This document shows positions 12,034 to 51,259 of a stretch of DNA of 64,000 nt, one piece after another. The notes beneath the pieces were generated by a model. The model was given only the letters and a program-made list of their open reading frames with translations, did not search any database and had not been told where the DNA came from. A program made the translations under genes and the position numbers. Every line of letters begins with the position of its first letter. The first letter of the stretch is position 1. Source of the DNA: Octopus vulgaris (Eukaryota); the NCBI GenBank assembly GCA_951406725.2, contig OX597825.1:4898001-4962000 (forward strand). The letters run 5' to 3'.

Positions 12034-12530
12034 GTGGTACGAACATAAACCCGAAGCCATCATCGAAAATGATAACGCAAAGATCCTATGAGATTTTATG
12101 ATTCAGTGCAACCATGAGATAGAGAATAGGAAGCCAGACTTAGTGTTATTTGAAAAAGAAATCAAACTACGCTGGATCATAGATATAGCATGCCCAGCTG
12201 ACAACAAGGTATACGATAAGGAAGAAAGAAAAGTTGATAGATATGAGAGGTTGGCTTGGAAGATTAAGCAGTTGTGGTCGCTGAAAAAGGTGCTAGTAGT
12301 ACCGATAACTGTCGGAACCCTGGGGACAGTGAGTAAAATCTTGAGAAGTACATGGAACAAATAGGGGCTGCAATAAGGGTGGAGTACTTGCAGAAAACAG
12401 CACTGCTTGGAACAGCTCGAATACTCCGGATGGTGCTCGAAAAATAAGAGGTATTACCTTAGTTCACTGGTAGTGAACAGCTGGCACTGTAGTACATCTC
12501 CAGCGATAGAAGCTGTGCAAAACAACAAAT
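12032..12530 (+). mobile_element. R4/Dong-clade non-LTR retrotransposon 3' fragment (RLE domain) in (TAA)n
   Basis: KWYEHKPEAIIENDNAKIL..MIQCNHEIENRKPDLVLFEK..IDIACP..KVDRYERL..VVPITVGTLG..LQKTALLGTARILRMVLEK*, with an RPD/D/K-Y RLE pattern. Preceded by (ATA)n and followed by a TAA/TGA-rich tail. Confidence 0.9.
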
Positions 12531-12579
12531 AATGAGAATAATGATGATGATGATAATAAAAGGGCTATGGTTATGCTGA

Positions 12580-13632: not shown

Positions 13633-14400
13633 TAAAAACGGTAAGATAACAAAAGAAAGAAAGAGACCTTATATTGATATATGTATATATAGAGAGAGAT
13701 TATATTGATGTAATGTATGTACGTATGTATGTTTGATAGATCTGCATCTATCATATTAAACACATGGGACGCATGAGTGTATTAGAAGATGGCTGATATA
13801 GTTTTGATCATGGAGCTGATCTGGGCATTATCAGTGACAACAAAGACGTCCAAGGCCATCGAGGTTGATTATTTGAGCAGTCACCAGCAACATGTGTCTC
13901 AAATCACACTCGGTGAGTTGAACTTGTAAAGAAGCATTGGAGGGAGCATAAAAATGCACTTGGTGCACATGCTGAAATACACACGGGTTACAATATGCAG
14001 TCAGGCAATGTATCTTTATGCATTAAGTTTTGTTTTCCCACTTCATTCTACCAAACACCTCCACATTCCACAAAAAGACACCCATCGACACATATGCGCG
14101 TATGCGTGCGTGCGTGTGTGAGAGAGAGAGTGAGAGAGAGAGAGAAAGAGAGGGAGGGTTAGTAGCGTTTCCTGCATGGAAGTAAATCGAGCAATGAATG
14201 CCTAATATATAAATTTGAATGAAAATAGTAAATCAAATTTAAGCATGATTTTTTTTTCCATTTTTAAATAACGCAGCTGGAAATGGTGGGGGAATAGTAC
14301 TCTAAGTGCCCTACTTCAATTACATGGCTGGATTTTCAAAAGTGCAGGCGGTTGCTCTTGATATATACACACACATACATACATGCATACATACATACAT

Positions 14401-14803
14401 AAAAATTAGGCTTCTCAAAACCAGAAAGGAGAAAGCTAATTCGAAGGCTACAGATCCAATCCATCACTGGAACTGTAAAAATTTGTAAAACTTTCTAGAA
14501 GTTTATCATTTCAATATATATGAGCTTGTCTAGATATGTAACTATATGCATGAGAATATATATATATAAAACATACAAATCTGTACATACATACATACAT
14601 GAGTACATACATACATACATGCATACATACATACATACATACATACATACATACATACATACATACATACATACATACATACATACATACATACATACCT
14701 CATTGTTGATGTTGAAATTCCTAAGAAAGAACTTTGGATCTAGGTTAGAAACCGTTTTTTTTTTCTCTATTGGCAAGAAATCTTGAAATAAACAGAATAA
14801 TGA
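14401..14803 (+). mobile_element. R4-like RLE retrotransposon extreme 3' end plus UTR, (CATA)n-associated copy 1
   Basis: KLGFSKPERRKLIRRLQIQSITGTVKICKTF is homologous to the C-terminus at 15780-15870. CATA repeats lie upstream, inside the UTR and downstream. Confidence 0.75.
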
Positions 14804-15249
14804 CATACATACATGTGTACATACATGTATACATACATATATACAGACAGACAGACAGACATACTTTTTCAGTCATTGGATTGTGGTATATTGGAGCGTC
14901 ACCTTGAAAGTTTCAGTCGATTTATTTGCAAACCAGGTACTTATTCTATAGTCCCTTTTGCCAAACCGCTAAGTTATGGGGAGGTAAACTAACGAATATC
15001 GGTTGTCACGTGACGGTGCGAAAAACAACACAAACACAAATAAAGAAACACGTTGATATATCCATGACAGGCTTCTTCCGTTCAGTTTCTGTCTATCAAA
15101 TCCACTCACAAGGCTTGGGTCCGTTCAGGTGTATATAGAAGATACGCGAGACACACAAAGAGCTATACACATACACACACACACACACATACATACATAC
15201 ATACATACATACATACATACATACATACATACATACATACATACATACA

Positions 15250-15991
15250 AAGTCTCTGGTGAACAAGAGAGACAGTGACGCTCTTGTAATCCCAAGGTGC
15301 AACCGCATGTGTAGGCTATGTCATGTTTCTGTGGAAGACATTACGCATGTGATTAGCAGCTGTCCTAAAATGTCGTCACGGTACTTGCCTCCCTATACAG
15401 CACGATGTTGTTAGAAAAACAATTCACAATGCCATCCGCGAAAAAAGACTGTCCTGAAATAAACTTAGAAAATCTCTCTGTTATGGAATGCATTCATAAA
15501 TACTAACTCAAGGAATACTGGTGGAATATTTCCATCAAATCTTCTGTCAAATGTAAACATAACAACCGGATATTGTTGTTTGGGACAGAGGGACAAAGGT
15601 ATGTAGCTTCCTCTCAGATATAAATAACTCTTTGGAAATCAAAGAAAAAGAGGATATCTATGGACAACTGCTTCGAAATCTCCAGTTTCTATATCCAGAC
15701 TATGAATTCATGTTCATACCAATAATAATTGGAGCACTAGGTTTTGTTAGTAAATGCTTAAAGGAGAATCTGAATAAACTGGAATTTTCAGAAAGAGAGA
15801 CTGGCCGGCTGATTCGTACTTTACAAGTGTAATCTGTGAGTGGAATAGTAAAAATATGCAAGACTTTAATCAAGCTCCAAATGTGAATTTATCTGTGTTA
15901 ATTTCATTCCAAAGATGGAGCCTTGTGTCTTTGTTGGAAACCCGGCTCCATTCTCAGTGGAAGATTTATAATAATTAAAAAATAGAAGAGA
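15250..15991 (+). mobile_element. R4-like RLE retrotransposon 3' fragment, (CATA)n-associated copy 2
   Basis: CRLCHVSVEDITHVISSCPK (CCHC knuckle), HDVV, EYWWN, PDIVVWD, KEDIYGQL, FIPIIIGALG, SGIVKICKT across frameshifts. Bounded by (CATA)n on both sides. Confidence 0.85.
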
Positions 15992-16597
15992 CATACATAC
16001 ATACACACATACATACATACATACATACATACATACATACATACATACATACATACATACATACATACATACATACATACATACATACATACATACATAC
16101 ATACATACATACATACATACATACATACATACATACATACATACATACATACATACATACATACATACATACATACATACATACGTACGTACATACATAC
16201 ATACATACATACATACATACATACATACATACATACATACATACATCACATACATACATACATACATACATACATACACACATACATACATACATACATA
16301 CATACATACATACATACATACATACATACATACATACATACATACATACATACATACATACATACATACATACATACATACATACATACATACATACATA
16401 CATACATACATACATACATACATACATACATACATACATACATACATACATACATACACACATACATACATACATACACACATACATACATACATACATA
16501 CATACATACATACATACATACATACATACGTACATACATACATACATACATACATACATACATACATACATACATACATACATACATACATACATAC
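15991..16597. repeat. Very long (CATA)n microsatellite, about 600 bp
   Basis: Read directly; source of the MYVC-repeat ORFs. Confidence 0.95.
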
Positions 16598-16769
16598 AAA
16601 CGACAAAGCTGCGCCGAACAATTTCATTCGCAAGCCATTAGTAGGCTTGAGGTTATACTAAAAGAGACAAGCCCTGTCACTCACACATACACACACATAT
16701 ATGTATATTTGTATGTGTATGTGAGTGTCTCTGTGTGTGTATACGTATAATGTATACCTATGTATGTAA

Positions 16770-16802
<33 letters not shown>

Positions 16803-17284
16803 CAAATAAATGAAAGAATGGTGTTTTTCTGACGTGAATTTGCTACCCAGGTATCGGTTAACCGAATTATCCATAATAAGATAATTCATTCAACTACTCA
16901 ATTATATATATATATATATATATATATATGCATATGTGTGTGTACAAAAATTACGCAAAGAGAGAGAGTTGTGGACCTCATATATATATATATGCATATG
17001 TGTGTGTACAAAAATTACGCAAAGAGAGAGAGTTGTGGACCTCAAGAAATAATAAATGTAATTTCGCTGAATGTAGAGATAAGAAGGATTGGGTGGGCAT
17101 GCGTATGCGATTATGTATGAACAGTAGCGTGTTTGTGCGCATGAGCATGTATGTATGTGTGTGTACATGTACATGCATGTGTATGTGGGTGGATGCGTGC
17201 GTGTATATGTGTGAGTGTGGCAGTGTCCGGGAGAATATGCGCGTGCATGTATGAGTGTGTGTATGTATGCGTGTGCGTGTGTTT

Positions 17285-17337
<53 letters not shown>

Positions 17338-17918
17338 TGTGTGTGTGTGTATTAGTGTGTGTGTGCGTATGTGTAAAAACTGTACTGTGAAAATACAGTT
17401 ATATTCACTGAGAAGAAAGTAGTCGCCACTTTAAACTTTGGTGACAGCTTCTCATTAAAACTTCAAAGCTTTCGCTCATCCGAGACCGGAACTCCCTACT
17501 TGCGTACGACCGGAAGTAATCTAATGCTCTAAATAAACCAGCATGCAGCATTTTATCACTATTACAGCTATTAATTATCCACCGACCCCTCACAAAAATA
17601 TAGCAAAGACATTAAGACACAAGGTAGAGCACACCGGACGGTGAATGGTATTTAGGGAGATCCACAAGCAACAGCGCCCCAATTTATAATATACCTTAAT
17701 GATTTCTGTCTATGTATCTGGGTGGTTGTTGTTGTAGTTGTGGGGGTCACGGTGGAGGTGAGAAGTGGAAGGTCATAGGTGATGTTTTTATCTCTTGCCA
17801 AGCAAGAACAACAATTGGGAATATTATCAGCAATTCAAATGGGAAGATAGTTTATAGATTCAGATACAAACACACAGAAGCTCACACCCACGCAGGCACG
17901 CAGTCACACGCACACGCA

Positions 17919-17964
<46 letters not shown>

Positions 17965-17974
17965 TACATACATA

Positions 17975-18369
17975 TATAACAAAATAGATTAGATTTTGTG
18001 ATTCAGGACAGAGAGGAGAGACTATGTACAGTAGTGGAAATCTGTTACCCAGAGGATATCAAAATAAAAATAAAGGCACCAATCTTGAGAAATAAGGGAG
18101 CTGAAAACGAGAAAGAAAGATTCGAAAATTTCAAAACACAAATCATCAACGGAACTGTTAAAGTACTCTTGTATTCTTTTACTTGTTTCAGTCATTTGAC
18201 TGCGGCCATGCTGGAGCACCGCCTTTTAGTCGAACAAATCGACCCCAGGACTTATTGTTTGTAAGCCTAGTACTTATTTTATCAGTGTCTTTTGCCGAAC
18301 CCTTAAGTTATAGGGGATGTAAACACAGCAGCATCGGTTGTCAAGCGATGGTGGGGGTAGGAACAAATA

Positions 18370-18423
<54 letters not shown>

Positions 18424-18720
18424 CGATGGACTTCTTTCAGTTTCCATCTACCAAATCTAATCACAAGTCTCTGTATAACTTTCCAGAAGTTTAGTATTAC
18501 AGCTATAAGAATAAGACATGCAATTATGTGTGCGAGAATGCTTGCATAGAACAAAACATACAACCTTGCACATGCACTGACTCTACATGTTGCACACATG
18601 AACAGAAACATGCACGAATATTTTGTTAATGCCGTTTAAAATTTCAATTAAGGAACTTTGAGTCTAGGTGAGAAACCGACACTTTCTCTGTTGGAGAGAA
18701 CTCCAGAAATAAAATTAAAT
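17975..18720 (+). mobile_element. R4-like RLE retrotransposon fragment, (CATA)n-associated copy 3, split by a SINE
   Basis: VIQDREERLCTVVEICYPEDI and INGTVKV, then a 3' UTR (AACTTTCCAGAAGTTT; GGAACTTTGAGTCTAGGTGAGAAACCG..GAAATAAA) matching 14489-14790. (CATA)n resumes at about 18972 after a second SINE. Confidence 0.65.
18175..18468 (-). mobile_element. SINE family A, 5'-truncated
   Basis: Family A tail and body, inserted in copy 3 of the RLE element. Confidence 0.85.
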
Positions 18721-18724
18721 ATTC

Positions 18725-18930
18725 GTTTCTACTCCAGGAAAAAGGATCGAAATTTTGGGAGAGGGACCAGTCGATTAGATCTACCCCAGTACGCAACTGG
18801 TACTTAATTTATCGATCCTGAAAGGATGAAATGTAAAGTCGACCTCGGCGGAATTTGAACTCAAAACGTAAAGACAGACGAAATAGCACTAAGCATTTCG
18901 CCCGGCGTGCTAACGGTTCTGCCAGCTCGC
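18725..18930 (-). mobile_element. SINE family B
   Basis: Reverse complement of the family B head, core and tail. Confidence 0.85.
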
Positions 18931-19178
18931 TGCATTAATAAAATCATATATTAACATACATAAAGCTGAATGCATACATACATACATACATACATACATA
19001 CATACATACATACATACATACATACATACATACATACATGCATACATACATACAGACATATGACGGCTCTCTGTCATCCAGTTTCACCCAGAAGGTCTTA
19101 GTAGAAGACGCTTGCCCCAGGATGTCATGAAGTGTGATTGAACTTGAGACCATGCAACTGCGCAAGAGCAGCAGCAGC

Positions 19179-36039: not shown

Positions 36040-36650
36040 TCTTTACTACTCTAAGCAGAAGGCCCCGAAAATTTTGAGGAAGGGGCCAGTCCGTTAGATC
36101 GTCTCCAGTACACAACTGGTACTTAATTTATCAACCTCGAAAGGATGAATGGCAAAGTCCACCTCGATGGAATTTGAAATCAGAAAGGAAAGACTGACAA
36201 AATACCGCTAAGCATTTCACCCTCCGTGCGAACGTTTCTTATTTATTTATTACCCACAAGGGGCTACACACAGAGGAGACAAACAAGGACAGACAAACGG
36301 ATTAAGTCGATTATATCGTCCCCAGTGCGTAACTGGTACTTATTTAATCGACCCCAAAAGGATGAAAGGTAAAGTCGACCTCGGCGGAATTTGAACTTAG
36401 AACCTAGCGACGGGTGAAATATTTCTTTATTACCCACAAGGGGCTAAACATAGAGGGGACAAACAAGGACAGACAAATGGATTAAGTCGATTATATCGAC
36501 CCCAGTGCGTAAGTGGTACTTATTTAATCGATCCCGAAAGGATGAAAGGCAAAGTCGACCTCAGCGGAATTTTAACTCAGAAAGTAACAGCAGACGGAAT
36601 ACGGCTAAGCATTTCACCAGGCGTGCTAACGTTTCTGCCAGCTCACCGCC
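36040..36650 (-). mobile_element. SINE family B head-to-tail trimer
   Basis: Three consecutive cores GAAAGGATGAAAGGCAAAGTCGACCTC with two tail variants. Confidence 0.85.
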
Positions 36651-37059: not shown

Positions 37060-37681
37060 TTGTTCCTTTTTATCACAGGTTTTGATGGAACACTGGGCTT
37101 GCTACCTGCAAACTGTCTGATACTTTCTTGATTATTCTGACCATGCCAAGGTGACAAATATATTCTTTACTACTCTAGACACAAGGCCAGAAATTTGGCG
37201 GGAGGGGGCCAGTCGATTAGATCGACCCAAGTACGCAACTGGTGCTTAATTTATCGACCCGAAAGGATGAAAAGCAAAGTTGACTTCGGCGGAATTTGAA
37301 CTCAGAACGAAGGAGACAAATATATTGTAACAGTTCTACTGGGCACTCTATTCCAATTTCCTTCATATTCCTCTTGATGCCTTCTGATACTGTTCCCAAA
37401 GATCCAACAATAATTGGCACTATCTTCACGTTCTTCGTTTTTCATAGCCGGGCTATTTCGTACTAAAAAGGGTTGTATTCATTTATTTTCTCGCCTGCCT
37501 TCTTAACTGTTTTGGGGTCAAAGAGCAATGCAACATCAATTATATTGCACAAGCGGTGCATCTTGTCAACCGCCACTAGGTCCAGTCTGTTATACTCTAG
37601 AGCCTGATCTTCAAAGATTGGTAAATACCACACGATATTATTCTAGTCGCCAACTCTGCCACTCTCTGCGGTTTGTTCTCA

Positions 37682-40891: not shown

Positions 40892-41977
40892 TATACTATT
40901 ATGTCAAACATATATATGTGTATGTATGTATGTATGTATGTATGTATGTATGTATGTATGTATGTATGTATGTATGTATGTTTGTATGTATGTATGTATG
41001 TATATGTGTATGTATGTATGGCATGTTTCTATGTATGGATGTACGTATGTATGTATGCAAGTATGTATGTATGTATGTAGTTCATATAACGGGCTACTTT
41101 AGCTGTTTTCACAATAGATTGAGTGAAAAAATGGATAACCGTAATCAGTTTTCGAATCGCATTCGATGTAGTGTTCAACGCTAGGGTACAGTTAATTCTA
41201 TTCAGAGTTGAAAAATATAACCTATTCAAAATAAATGTCAGTCAGTAAAACACTTGACGCTTAGTTAAGAAATTAGCAGCGAGTATTTTATCTGTCTAAG
41301 TAACAATATTCATAGAAAATAAAATGAAATAAATGAAAGCCTTCTGATGTTACAGCGATGAGTAGGGGATATAACTCTGAAGCGTCTTGATTACGCCATG
41401 TAAATAGATATGAGGGAAGTAATTTCCATTTAATTTAAGGAAATTATTGTGAGTAGTGTCCCATTAAAAGTGAATAGGGCGCGTCAAGTGAATATATTTA
41501 ATTGTGAAAATGTCATGTAGGGAATAATATAATGTAGTATAGTATAAGTATAGTACAGTATAGTATAGTACGTTATACTATGCTATACTATAATATGATG
41601 TAATATAGTATTACATTATATTATATTGATATTTTATAATGTAACAGAAATTATATAATAATAAAATGCAACAATCTGAAAAGAAATCTAACTTAATACA
41701 TCGTAATTTATTATAATGTAATATGTGATATAATACATTTTAGTATAGGTATTATAATATCATATATGATATCACATAATATGATATCATATATGGTATC
41801 ATATGACGTAATACGTTATGTGAAATAATAAAATGTATAAGGTATAATTTCACATTATACAAGAGATTTACGTAATTTTTATATATACTTTTTTACTTTC
41901 TGTTTTTGTTCTTTGTTTTCTTTCGTCCTTGTAAATGTATATATCAAGCCTTATTGTTTTTGTCTGCAAAACTACCT

Positions 41978-42508
41978 GTATGTATGCTTGTATGTATGCT
42001 TGTATGTATGTATGTGTGTGTGTATGTATGTGTGTATGTATGTATGTATGTATGTATGAATGTGTGTATGAATGTATGTATGTATGTATGAATGTATGTA
42101 TGTATGTATGAATGTGTGTGTATGTATGTTTGTATGTATGTATGTATGTATGTATGTATTTATGTATGTATATATGTGTGTATGTATGTATGTATGTTTG
42201 TATTTTGGTATGTAGTATGTATGTATGTATGTATGTATGTATGTATGTATGTATGTATGTATGTATGTATGTATGTATGTTTGGATATATGTACGTATGC
42301 ATGTATGTATGTTTGTATGTATGCGTATGTATATATGTATGTATGTTTGTATGTATGTATATGTGTATGTATGTATGGTATGTTTCTATGTATGTATGTA
42401 CGTATGTATGTATGTATGTTTCTATGTATGTATGTACGTATGTATGTATGTATGTATGTATGCAAGTATGTATGTATGAATGTTTGTATGCATGTGTGTG
42501 TATATATG

Positions 42509-42542
<34 letters not shown>

Positions 42543-42660
42543 TGTATGTATGTATGTATTTATGTATTTATGTATTTATGTATGTATGTATGTATGTATG
42601 TATGTACGCATGCACGTATGTATTTACAAATGAACGCAGGCACGTACGTATGTATGCCTG
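41978..42660. repeat. Degenerate (TATG)n satellite
   Basis: Read directly. Confidence 0.9.
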
Positions 42661-44370: not shown

Positions 44371-45054
44371 AAAAGAAGGAATGCTGTCCTACTGGTGTAC
44401 CGATCTGAAGGGTTTAGCGGAACAAATTGTTGTAGAGATCGGCTGCCTTGCTAATGTGAATATCGGAAACCGAAGAGAAAGAGAGTAACTACGGACTATT
44501 TTATTGCACACACCAGCTTCTATTCCCAGATTATAAATTCACATTTATACCAATAATATTTGGAGTATTTGATTTTGCGAATAAGATGACAATCTGGATA
44601 TGCTAGAATTTTCAGAAAAAGAAATCAATCAACGAACGCACATTACAGATATAATGTATAAGCGGAACAGTCAAAATATGCATGACTTGTTGAAAATAGA
44701 AGGTTGTTTTTGTTAACAAACGAATTTTGTACAATATCAAGCCTATGTTTATCGTGGAATGTTAGAAATTTATGTCTAAAAATGACTAGTAAATGCTTAC
44801 TAATTAGGGCCTTCTTTAATAAAAAGTATTTAGTCCTTACATTATTTAAAACAAAGCTCACATGTGAAGAAGTGTAATCCTGTCACTACAGAAAGGGATA
44901 AACCGTGTTCGAGTGAAATAGTCTATTAGGAATAATCATTCGAATAAAAAATAAAACTTTCGTGACCACATTTTATATTACATCAATGTTCGTTTATTAA
45001 TTTTCTATACTTGAAGATGTAATTATTTTCAAAGGGTAATGTTACAGCAAATAG

Positions 45055-50164: not shown

Positions 50165-51259
50165 GTGTGCGTGTGTGTGTGTGCGTGTGTGTGTGTGTGT
50201 ACGTACAATGCCAACCGTAAAACGCACTGCCTCTGGCAAGTACAGGAAGCATTTCTGTCGTGGAGTACATATAGATATACTTTAATCTGCGTTTCTCTAG
50301 GATTCATTTCAAGACTTTAACCTGAAGCATGGAATATTATATAGAATTTAATAATGGCTGAACTTGAAAGGTTTTTCCTGATATCACAGGAATGGGGACA
50401 GAGAAAGAGAGAGAGAGAAAGAAAAGAGAGCAATCATTTATAGACTTCAGTTTGTTGAATGAACCTAGTCCTTTTCTAACTTGCCACATTGCCAAAGGGT
50501 GTAATACGTAATGTTTTATCAACACAAGTAACTTCTTTCATTCAAACGTAAACCTGAAATAGTCTGTTGGTGTTTAGAAACCCAAACTAGGGAATCTTTC
50601 TGCAGGCAGTCTGAATCTGAAGAGGTCAGTTGCTCTGGAGATGTAAGCATTTCTTACAAATCAGCGACGAAGTGAATATTTGCAGACAATCGCTTCGAAA
50701 ATCTACAGCTTATTTACCCAGATTATAAATTATCACAGCTACTTTAATCATGGATGCGCCTGAATGTGTGTTACTAAATGTCTTATTAGTAATCTAAAAA
50801 AACTGTGGGGTTTTTTTTTTGGGGGGTGGTGAGACCAACTAAGCTACTCATAGCAAATACAAGCTGTGAGTGGAATGGTACAACAAAGCAGGAATTTTCT
50901 AATGACGGACACGTAATAATACTTCACCGTTGTTTGTTATCCTAAGTCAGCTGATAAGGCGTTTTGCCGTTATTCTTGTTATTCAGAAATTAGTTTCGTT
51001 ATAAGAATTCAACTAATTAAACACACACACACACATATGTATATGTATACAAATTAAGCATATCTTTAGCATATTAGAAATCCACTTTGGTTGTCATTCT
51101 TCTTAATTTTTAGGTATTACAATTTTTAATCTTCGGATTTTTTAAAATATACTAAGCCACTGGTTTTAATTGATTAATATCAATTTCTATCCTTATTATC
51201 TAATTTGTATGTATGTATGTATGTATGTATGTATGTATGTATGTATGTATGTATGTATG

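Follow-up and report, generated by a model that had tools for sequence, protein, structure and literature searches.

We describe three fragments of retrotransposons carrying a restriction-like endonuclease (RLE) that lie in tracts of the tetranucleotide repeat (CATA)n in the genome of Octopus vulgaris. They are situated within 64,000 nucleotides (nt) of contig OX597825.1 (assembly GCA_951406725.2, positions 4,898,001 to 4,962,000 of the forward strand), a stretch further referred to as the window. The fragments belong to two sister families, here called A and B, which appear to be old, dead long interspersed nuclear element (LINE) families of the R4/Dong type. Both families likely target (CATA)n. 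The three fragments, dead and truncated at the 5' end, probably arose when these elements inserted, by target-primed reverse transcription, into CATA repeats that were already in place and that their protein likely recognised.

All three fragments are truncated at their 5' ends, lie on the plus strand and are found where a first-pass annotation, made from the sequence alone, had placed them; coordinates below are those of the window, on the plus strand unless stated otherwise. Copy 1 (14402..14802) consists of the last 34 codons of the open reading frame (ORF) and the 3' untranslated region (UTR) of family B, being 91% and 84% identical to the B reference copy L077 (tblastn E 3e-7). It is preceded by a 33-nt (CATA)n tract (14369..14401) and followed by a degenerate short CATA tail (14803..14864). 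Inside copy 1 lies the internal (CATA)n of the B 3' UTR (14584..14698), whose position is borne by the element and whose length differs among copies. Copy 2 represents the 3' 745 nt of family A (from 15247 or 15250 to 15991, best genomic copies 85-88% identical, the nearest 87-88%). The tract of 15 CATA units at its 5' junction (15175..15249) overlaps the element by 3 nt, its 3' UTR runs to 15991 and is followed by a (CATA)n array of 607 nt (15992..16598), and the longest pure array of the window adjoins this copy. As the annotation had noticed, the CCHC knuckle (15310-15363) and the RLE region (about 15560-15883) are still present in copy 2, the latter in degenerate form, with frameshifts, stops and a deletion of five codons including the catalytic-position glutamate that is present in other copies. 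Copy 3 (17975 to about 18716) is an older B-related 3' fragment, 66-80% identical to B copies and composed of the RLE end and the 3' UTR; it follows a (CA)n stretch ending in four CATA units (17905..17974) and contains a short interspersed nuclear element (SINE) on the minus strand (18164..18473, orientation read from the sequence), which has many matches in the window. A second SINE, also read as minus (18725..18935, approximate limits), separates the end of copy 3 from the (CATA)n array that follows (18973..19060), which is possibly the displaced 3' flank of this copy. The claim that CATA repeats stand on both sides thus holds for copies 1 and 2 and for the 5' side of copy 3, and the link of copy 3 to the array beyond the second SINE is plausible. 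The divergence of copy 2 from copies 1 and 3, taken earlier as a sign of independent insertions, is confirmed and can be refined: copy 2 belongs to family A and copies 1 and 3 to its sister family B, the reverse transcriptases (RTs) of the two being about 50% identical. Origin of the three copies from a single duplicated insertion is ruled out by this split over two families.

The preference for CATA was analysed genome-wide (2.8 Gb, 227 contigs), where the first look yielded 4,940 candidates for copy 2 (family A) and 6,562 for the ORF end of copy 1 (family B, best 88-90% identical), figures that count candidates and not copy numbers. Alignments were chained against actual genomic copies used as references, and the 45 nt preceding the 5' end that lay farthest out were scored. 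From 81 A loci, nine were dropped (the window copy, two segmental duplicates, one diverged copy and five with the 5' end outside the locus), leaving 72; two of 30 B loci with the 5' end outside the locus were dropped, leaving 28. Twenty arbitrarily placed 10-kb stretches, with 398,200 strand positions, served as background. At least four CATA units were present upstream of 47/72 A and 10/28 B copies (57/100 jointly) versus 0.89% of background positions, the enrichment for A being about 70-fold; at least two units were present in 53/72 and 17/28, respectively, versus 4.9%. The A positives come from three separately chosen sets (29/45, 16/24 and 2/3). At least four TATG units were found at none of the 100 A and B 5' ends, CATA being therefore always on the same strand. 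The 5' junctions, which the first-pass annotation had singled out for this comparison, thus fall in (CATA)n far above the background rate and in a strand-specific manner. Because the 47 positive A ends are spread over 43 element positions, the 5' CATA is not a terminus encoded by the element itself; CATA also flanks six copies whose sequence extends to the 5' end of the element or nearly so. At the other side, the first four bases after the native 3' end are CATA in 28/46 A copies, the one in the window being counted, and in 6/11 B copies, 37 of the 46 A ends open with CA, and the join ...GA|CATA is constant in both families. Among 3' ends made by deletion, at least four CATA units were found in one of 21. 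Direct 5' joins show modest microhomology, with a mean overlap of 2.0 nt versus 0.79 expected (32 joins scored, 14 of them direct, p 0.0003).

Other repeats of the same genome served as controls. Family Y, found by a genome search with a stretch of an Argonauta protein, is a young Dong-like LINE of about 4.0 kb with long open frames, mostly about 97% identical copies and one intact ORF of 1,227 amino acids (L236, G000:C3:157453500-157461000, minus strand; further copies L237-L255). TAA repeats are present at 18/20 of its 5' ends and 16/16 of its native 3' ends, CATA at 0/20. Conversely, at least six TAA units occur at 0/100 A and B 5' ends (background 0.48%). Several Y copies show short duplications at the 5' end. 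Two old TAA-tailed RLE families are represented in the window as well, one by a fragment at 12,036-12,560 directly after (TAA)26 (4,026 candidates, best copies 88-91% identical), the other by a SINE-split fragment at 37,100-37,680 on the minus strand after a (TAG)n tract (best copies 81-84%). In each of them CATA was found at 0/20 and TAA at 6/20 5' ends, the ends being crude and the window copies included. The second fragment was also considered as a candidate for a (TAG)n-targeting family, which is ruled out by its TAA tail and by TAG at 1/20 ends. The heads of two SINEs carried CATA in 0/19 cases in random loci and 0/70 in other loci; heads of the common SINE in the random loci (L126-L145) are preceded by AT in 9/11 cases, often in AT-containing repeats. 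Since these controls, older RLE families included, gave zero CATA, the preference of A and B is family-specific and does not stem from age or from a repeat-rich genome. Together with the 5' counts, the control families also exclude that CATA is a mere element-encoded tail.

Biochemistry of the R2 element provides the model for target binding, nicking and priming on the RNA end. By analogy with R2, the putative N-terminal Myb/SANT-like region and the RLE of A and B would bind the target and nick its (TATG)n strand, whose free 3' terminus would prime reverse transcription at the 3' end of the RNA, and the cDNA would be joined to upstream CATA with the aid of short microhomology. Each insertion would leave CATA on both sides, and B would add its internal tract, so that targets would be regenerated and later copies could settle beside earlier ones. 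Such regeneration would account for the clustering of the three window copies on one strand and fits the frequent same-strand neighbourhood of A and B copies (B-B, A-B and B-A tandems are common).

Presence of the repeat before insertion is partly shown. The internal CATA tract occupies a fixed position in the 3' UTR of many B copies, and 59 of 72 B proximal ends run straight into the distal UTR. In locus L146, an A copy follows this internal tract, shared by other B copies; the 3' side of the locus is deleted. Two B internal tracts (L207 and L229) are cleanly split by family C, a 550-nt non-coding repeat unrelated to A and B (L030:2397-2946, plus strand, and L216-L235; 819 candidates, best copies 94-96% identical), which makes the tract a proven landing site, though for C. 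In its own orientation, family C has (TATG)n at 18/20 5' ends (query locus included) and 14/20 3' ends; it uses the A/B microsatellite on the opposite strand, carries a matching (ATGT)n tail, and its ends are presumably RTE-like. Longer C copies (L162, L163) share the 3' end of the family and carry additional sequence ahead of it. Of 28 CATA arrays in random DNA totalling 200 kb, one touches A or B, namely a B internal tract, and 27 have no A/B neighbour, as is also the case with two arrays in the window (40,919-41,079 and 41,977-42,623). Targets are thus plentiful and most arrays were not seeded by these families. The earlier suggestion that the elements help to seed the very large CATA arrays is therefore not supported in general, although B does carry a CATA tract of its own.

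The leading alternative to recognition by the protein, in our opinion a rather unlikely one, also assumes pre-existing (CATA)n but has the site chosen when a (CAUA)n tail of the RNA pairs with the (TATG)n strand that an only loosely specific nuclease has nicked. The constant ...GA|CATA join of A and B would be expected then, as would the CATA inside the B 3' UTR and the use of the opposite strand of the same repeat by family C with its matching tail. It agrees less well with those native 3' ends that enter CACA, CATC, CAGA or CAAG, where only two to three nucleotides seem fixed, later mutation being possible. The junction data cannot separate recognition by the protein from pairing of the RNA tail as the selector of the site. 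We regard as very unlikely that the 5' CATA was created during insertion, by a jump of the RT to the tail of another RNA or by slippage, so that the element itself would make the array. The common tandem neighbours and the lack of a full empty site would fit such an origin, but 27 of the 28 random arrays are free of A and B, the A copy of L146 sits in a tract older than itself, and (CA)n or (TA)n frequently stands ahead of the 5' tracts, as in ordinary genomic microsatellites. That chance or passive accumulation produced the pattern in a genome rich in microsatellites, as the 161 tandem-repeat rows of the window might suggest, is hardly credible in view of the enrichment for A, the strict strand bias and the zero counts in four control sets, age-matched RLE families among them.

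Several points weigh against insertion by a CATA-recognising protein. A flank-pair search of 60 insertions against the fetched loci yielded no complete empty site of either family, all matches being driven by repeats, and no target-site duplication is readable in A/B flanks, these flanks being repeats. The A and B loci were the best-scoring matches, picked regardless of flanks, and not a random draw of copies. The threshold of at least four CATA units is not reached by 25/72 A and 18/28 B 5' ends, some of which adjoin later insertions. Insertion of family C in the same tracts means that more than one machinery is attracted to them, which fits pairing of the RNA tail. Finally, no intact A or B ORF is present among 150 + 150 protein matches and the fetched loci, and the enzyme is thus not readable from any single copy. 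As regards empty sites in other organisms, no join across the element occurred among the listed contigs for L169 and L211, the matches being swamped by other copies; the upstream flank of L211 is the end of an unrelated repeat.

The proteins of A and B can be followed across their broken copies. Full-length A measures about 3.7-3.9 kb. The longest RT frames among fetched copies have 382 (A) and 245 (B) amino acids, and long frames in the fetched A matches are mostly microsatellite read-through. The Pfam domain RVT_1 is matched with E 6e-22 in A (L089) and 4e-15 in B (L078), and copy L092 spans, across its breaks, 1108 of 1151 residues of a full-length relative. The architecture is a single ORF with a Dong-like N-terminal motif, RT, CCHC knuckle and RLE, and the best matches among solved structures are R2 proteins. 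The motifs CRLC..H....C, RHD, RPD..V.D, IEVSCP and K align across A, B, their relatives and family Y; they correspond to the CCHC knuckle and a PD-(D/E)xK-type endonuclease that follows it. Pfam gives weak zf-RVT and HSDR_N_2 hints in this C-terminal region, and none of 17 aligned proteins matches an apurinic/apyrimidinic (AP) endonuclease, C-terminal RLE motifs being present instead. The N-terminal motif is common to A, B and full-length relatives of 1,130-1,160 amino acids (E down to 5e-19) and aligns with that of the Bombyx protein P0096 and of family Y, without a Pfam SANT or Myb match. Variable 5' truncation and a constant 3' end agree with the pattern of RLE-type non-LTR elements.

In a quick tree of 125 RT regions, unrooted and built with no outgroup and no named R4, Dong or Rex6 references, A and B come out as sisters (Shimodaira-Hasegawa-like approximate likelihood-ratio support, SH-aLRT, 93) inside a lineage of 79 rows, including four from the octopus genome and one Argonauta protein. 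This lineage is separated (support 100) from one of 46 rows containing family Y and four insect proteins. The nearest named protein comes from Argonauta hians, and the RTs of A and B are about 35% identical to those of the Bombyx/insect group. Similarity to Bombyx/insect proteins, which group with the TAA-targeting Y, reaches E of about 1e-63 versus 5e-14 to R2, in databases of different sizes. Judged from protein similarity, membership of A and B in the R4/Dong clade is likely; the RT, CCHC and RLE motifs and the closer similarity to insect proteins than to R2 support the R4/Dong-type RLE identity that was assigned to the fragments at first sight.

Further sequences touching these families were observed. 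Loci L078:1413-3275, L088, L146, L177 and L179 contain A-like subfamilies, 66-76% identical to A and often located beside A/B copies. Long B copies (L076, L077, L080) have an internal (TAG)n tract in the N-terminal coding region, expanded in some of them, and a single A insertion recurs at L149, L157 and L160 on contig C28, three segmental duplicates that share its junctions and a further insertion within it. The window also has very old A/B-lineage remnants lacking CATA flanks, at 44433-44688 and about 50550-50732 on the plus strand, which are about 70% identical to A. The window further contains an exact 64-nt tandem duplication (16916-17044) and a 180-nt tandem unit built of SINE sequence (36240-36582).

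Among known systems, the Dong elements (Dong of Bombyx mori, DongAg, DongBg and ostracod Dong) share with A and B the RT, the C-terminal RLE and insertion into a microsatellite that flanks the element at either end. Their target is described as (TAA)n (PMC3812793), in a later text as TAA in most insects, molluscs and cnidarians (PMC7998251), a pattern matched by family Y, whereas A and B lie in (CATA)n, avoid TAA at all 100 5' ends and place their RTs on a separate, well-supported branch. A Myb/SANT-like N-terminal region is described for Dong (PMC3812793, PMC7998251) and for R4/Dong elements as a whole (PMC7998251); A and B have the aligned motif only. WaldoAg1, WaldoAg2 and WaldoFs1 of the R1 clade target ACAY (ACAT or ACAC) microsatellites according to the text of PMC3812793, including (ACAT)n, which equals (CATA)n. 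They are of the AP-endonuclease type, unlike A and B with their C-terminal CCHC and RLE, and the shared target would therefore be convergent. Togen, targeting the dinucleotide repeat (TG)n, and some HERO families are described as inserting into microsatellites (PMC4640811); like A and B they are RLE elements on repeats other than TAA, but they belong to lineages near NeSL/HERO.

For O. vulgaris, 51 Dong-R4 families are reported, comprising 92.7 Mb, five of them recently active (PMC13282606); the main text and one supplement of that report contain no occurrence of the word "target" and state no target sequence. Dong of O. bimaculoides is mentioned without a target in the text of PMC9115989. A, B and Y are probably among the catalogued O. 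vulgaris Dong-R4 families. According to PMC13586686, 4,464 animal assemblies were screened for such families by Fell et al. 2025. No R4-type element with a CATA target was found in the literature searched; Repbase, Dfam, Fell et al. 2025 and Kojima and Fujiwara 2004 stood outside this search and may list one. A scan of metagenomes with the relative P0007 found nothing, and none of the matching sequencing runs listed is recorded as RNA. The novelty of the specificity, which the first-pass annotation did not recall as described, is thus reduced by the ACAY target of Waldo in PMC3812793, yet it may be new in an RLE lineage of the R4 type. We suggest tentatively, and with somewhat more doubt than confidence, that A and B make up a deep, hitherto undescribed branch within R4/Dong in which the protein reads (CATA)n in place of (TAA)n. 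Such a branch would provide the first example of an RLE retrotransposon with a tetranucleotide target, reached in convergence with Waldo and with family C, the RTE-like passenger on the opposite strand of the repeat.

Elements of this clade are known to target microsatellites, the CATA target has a precedent in Waldo, and A and B seem to be dead. RLE retrotransposons are nevertheless studied as tools for site-specific insertion, and outside R2 their target may be set by the N-terminal domain, the nuclease or pairing of the RNA. With CATA-type and TAA-type lineages of the same architecture in one genome, specificity becomes testable by swaps of domains and tails. If our interpretation is true, the intact, TAA-targeting family Y beside A and B would present a natural pair for mapping it. 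The microsatellites of the octopus genome are seen to be partitioned among retroelements, TAA being used by Dong-like families and CATA by A and B and, in the opposite strand orientation, by family C.

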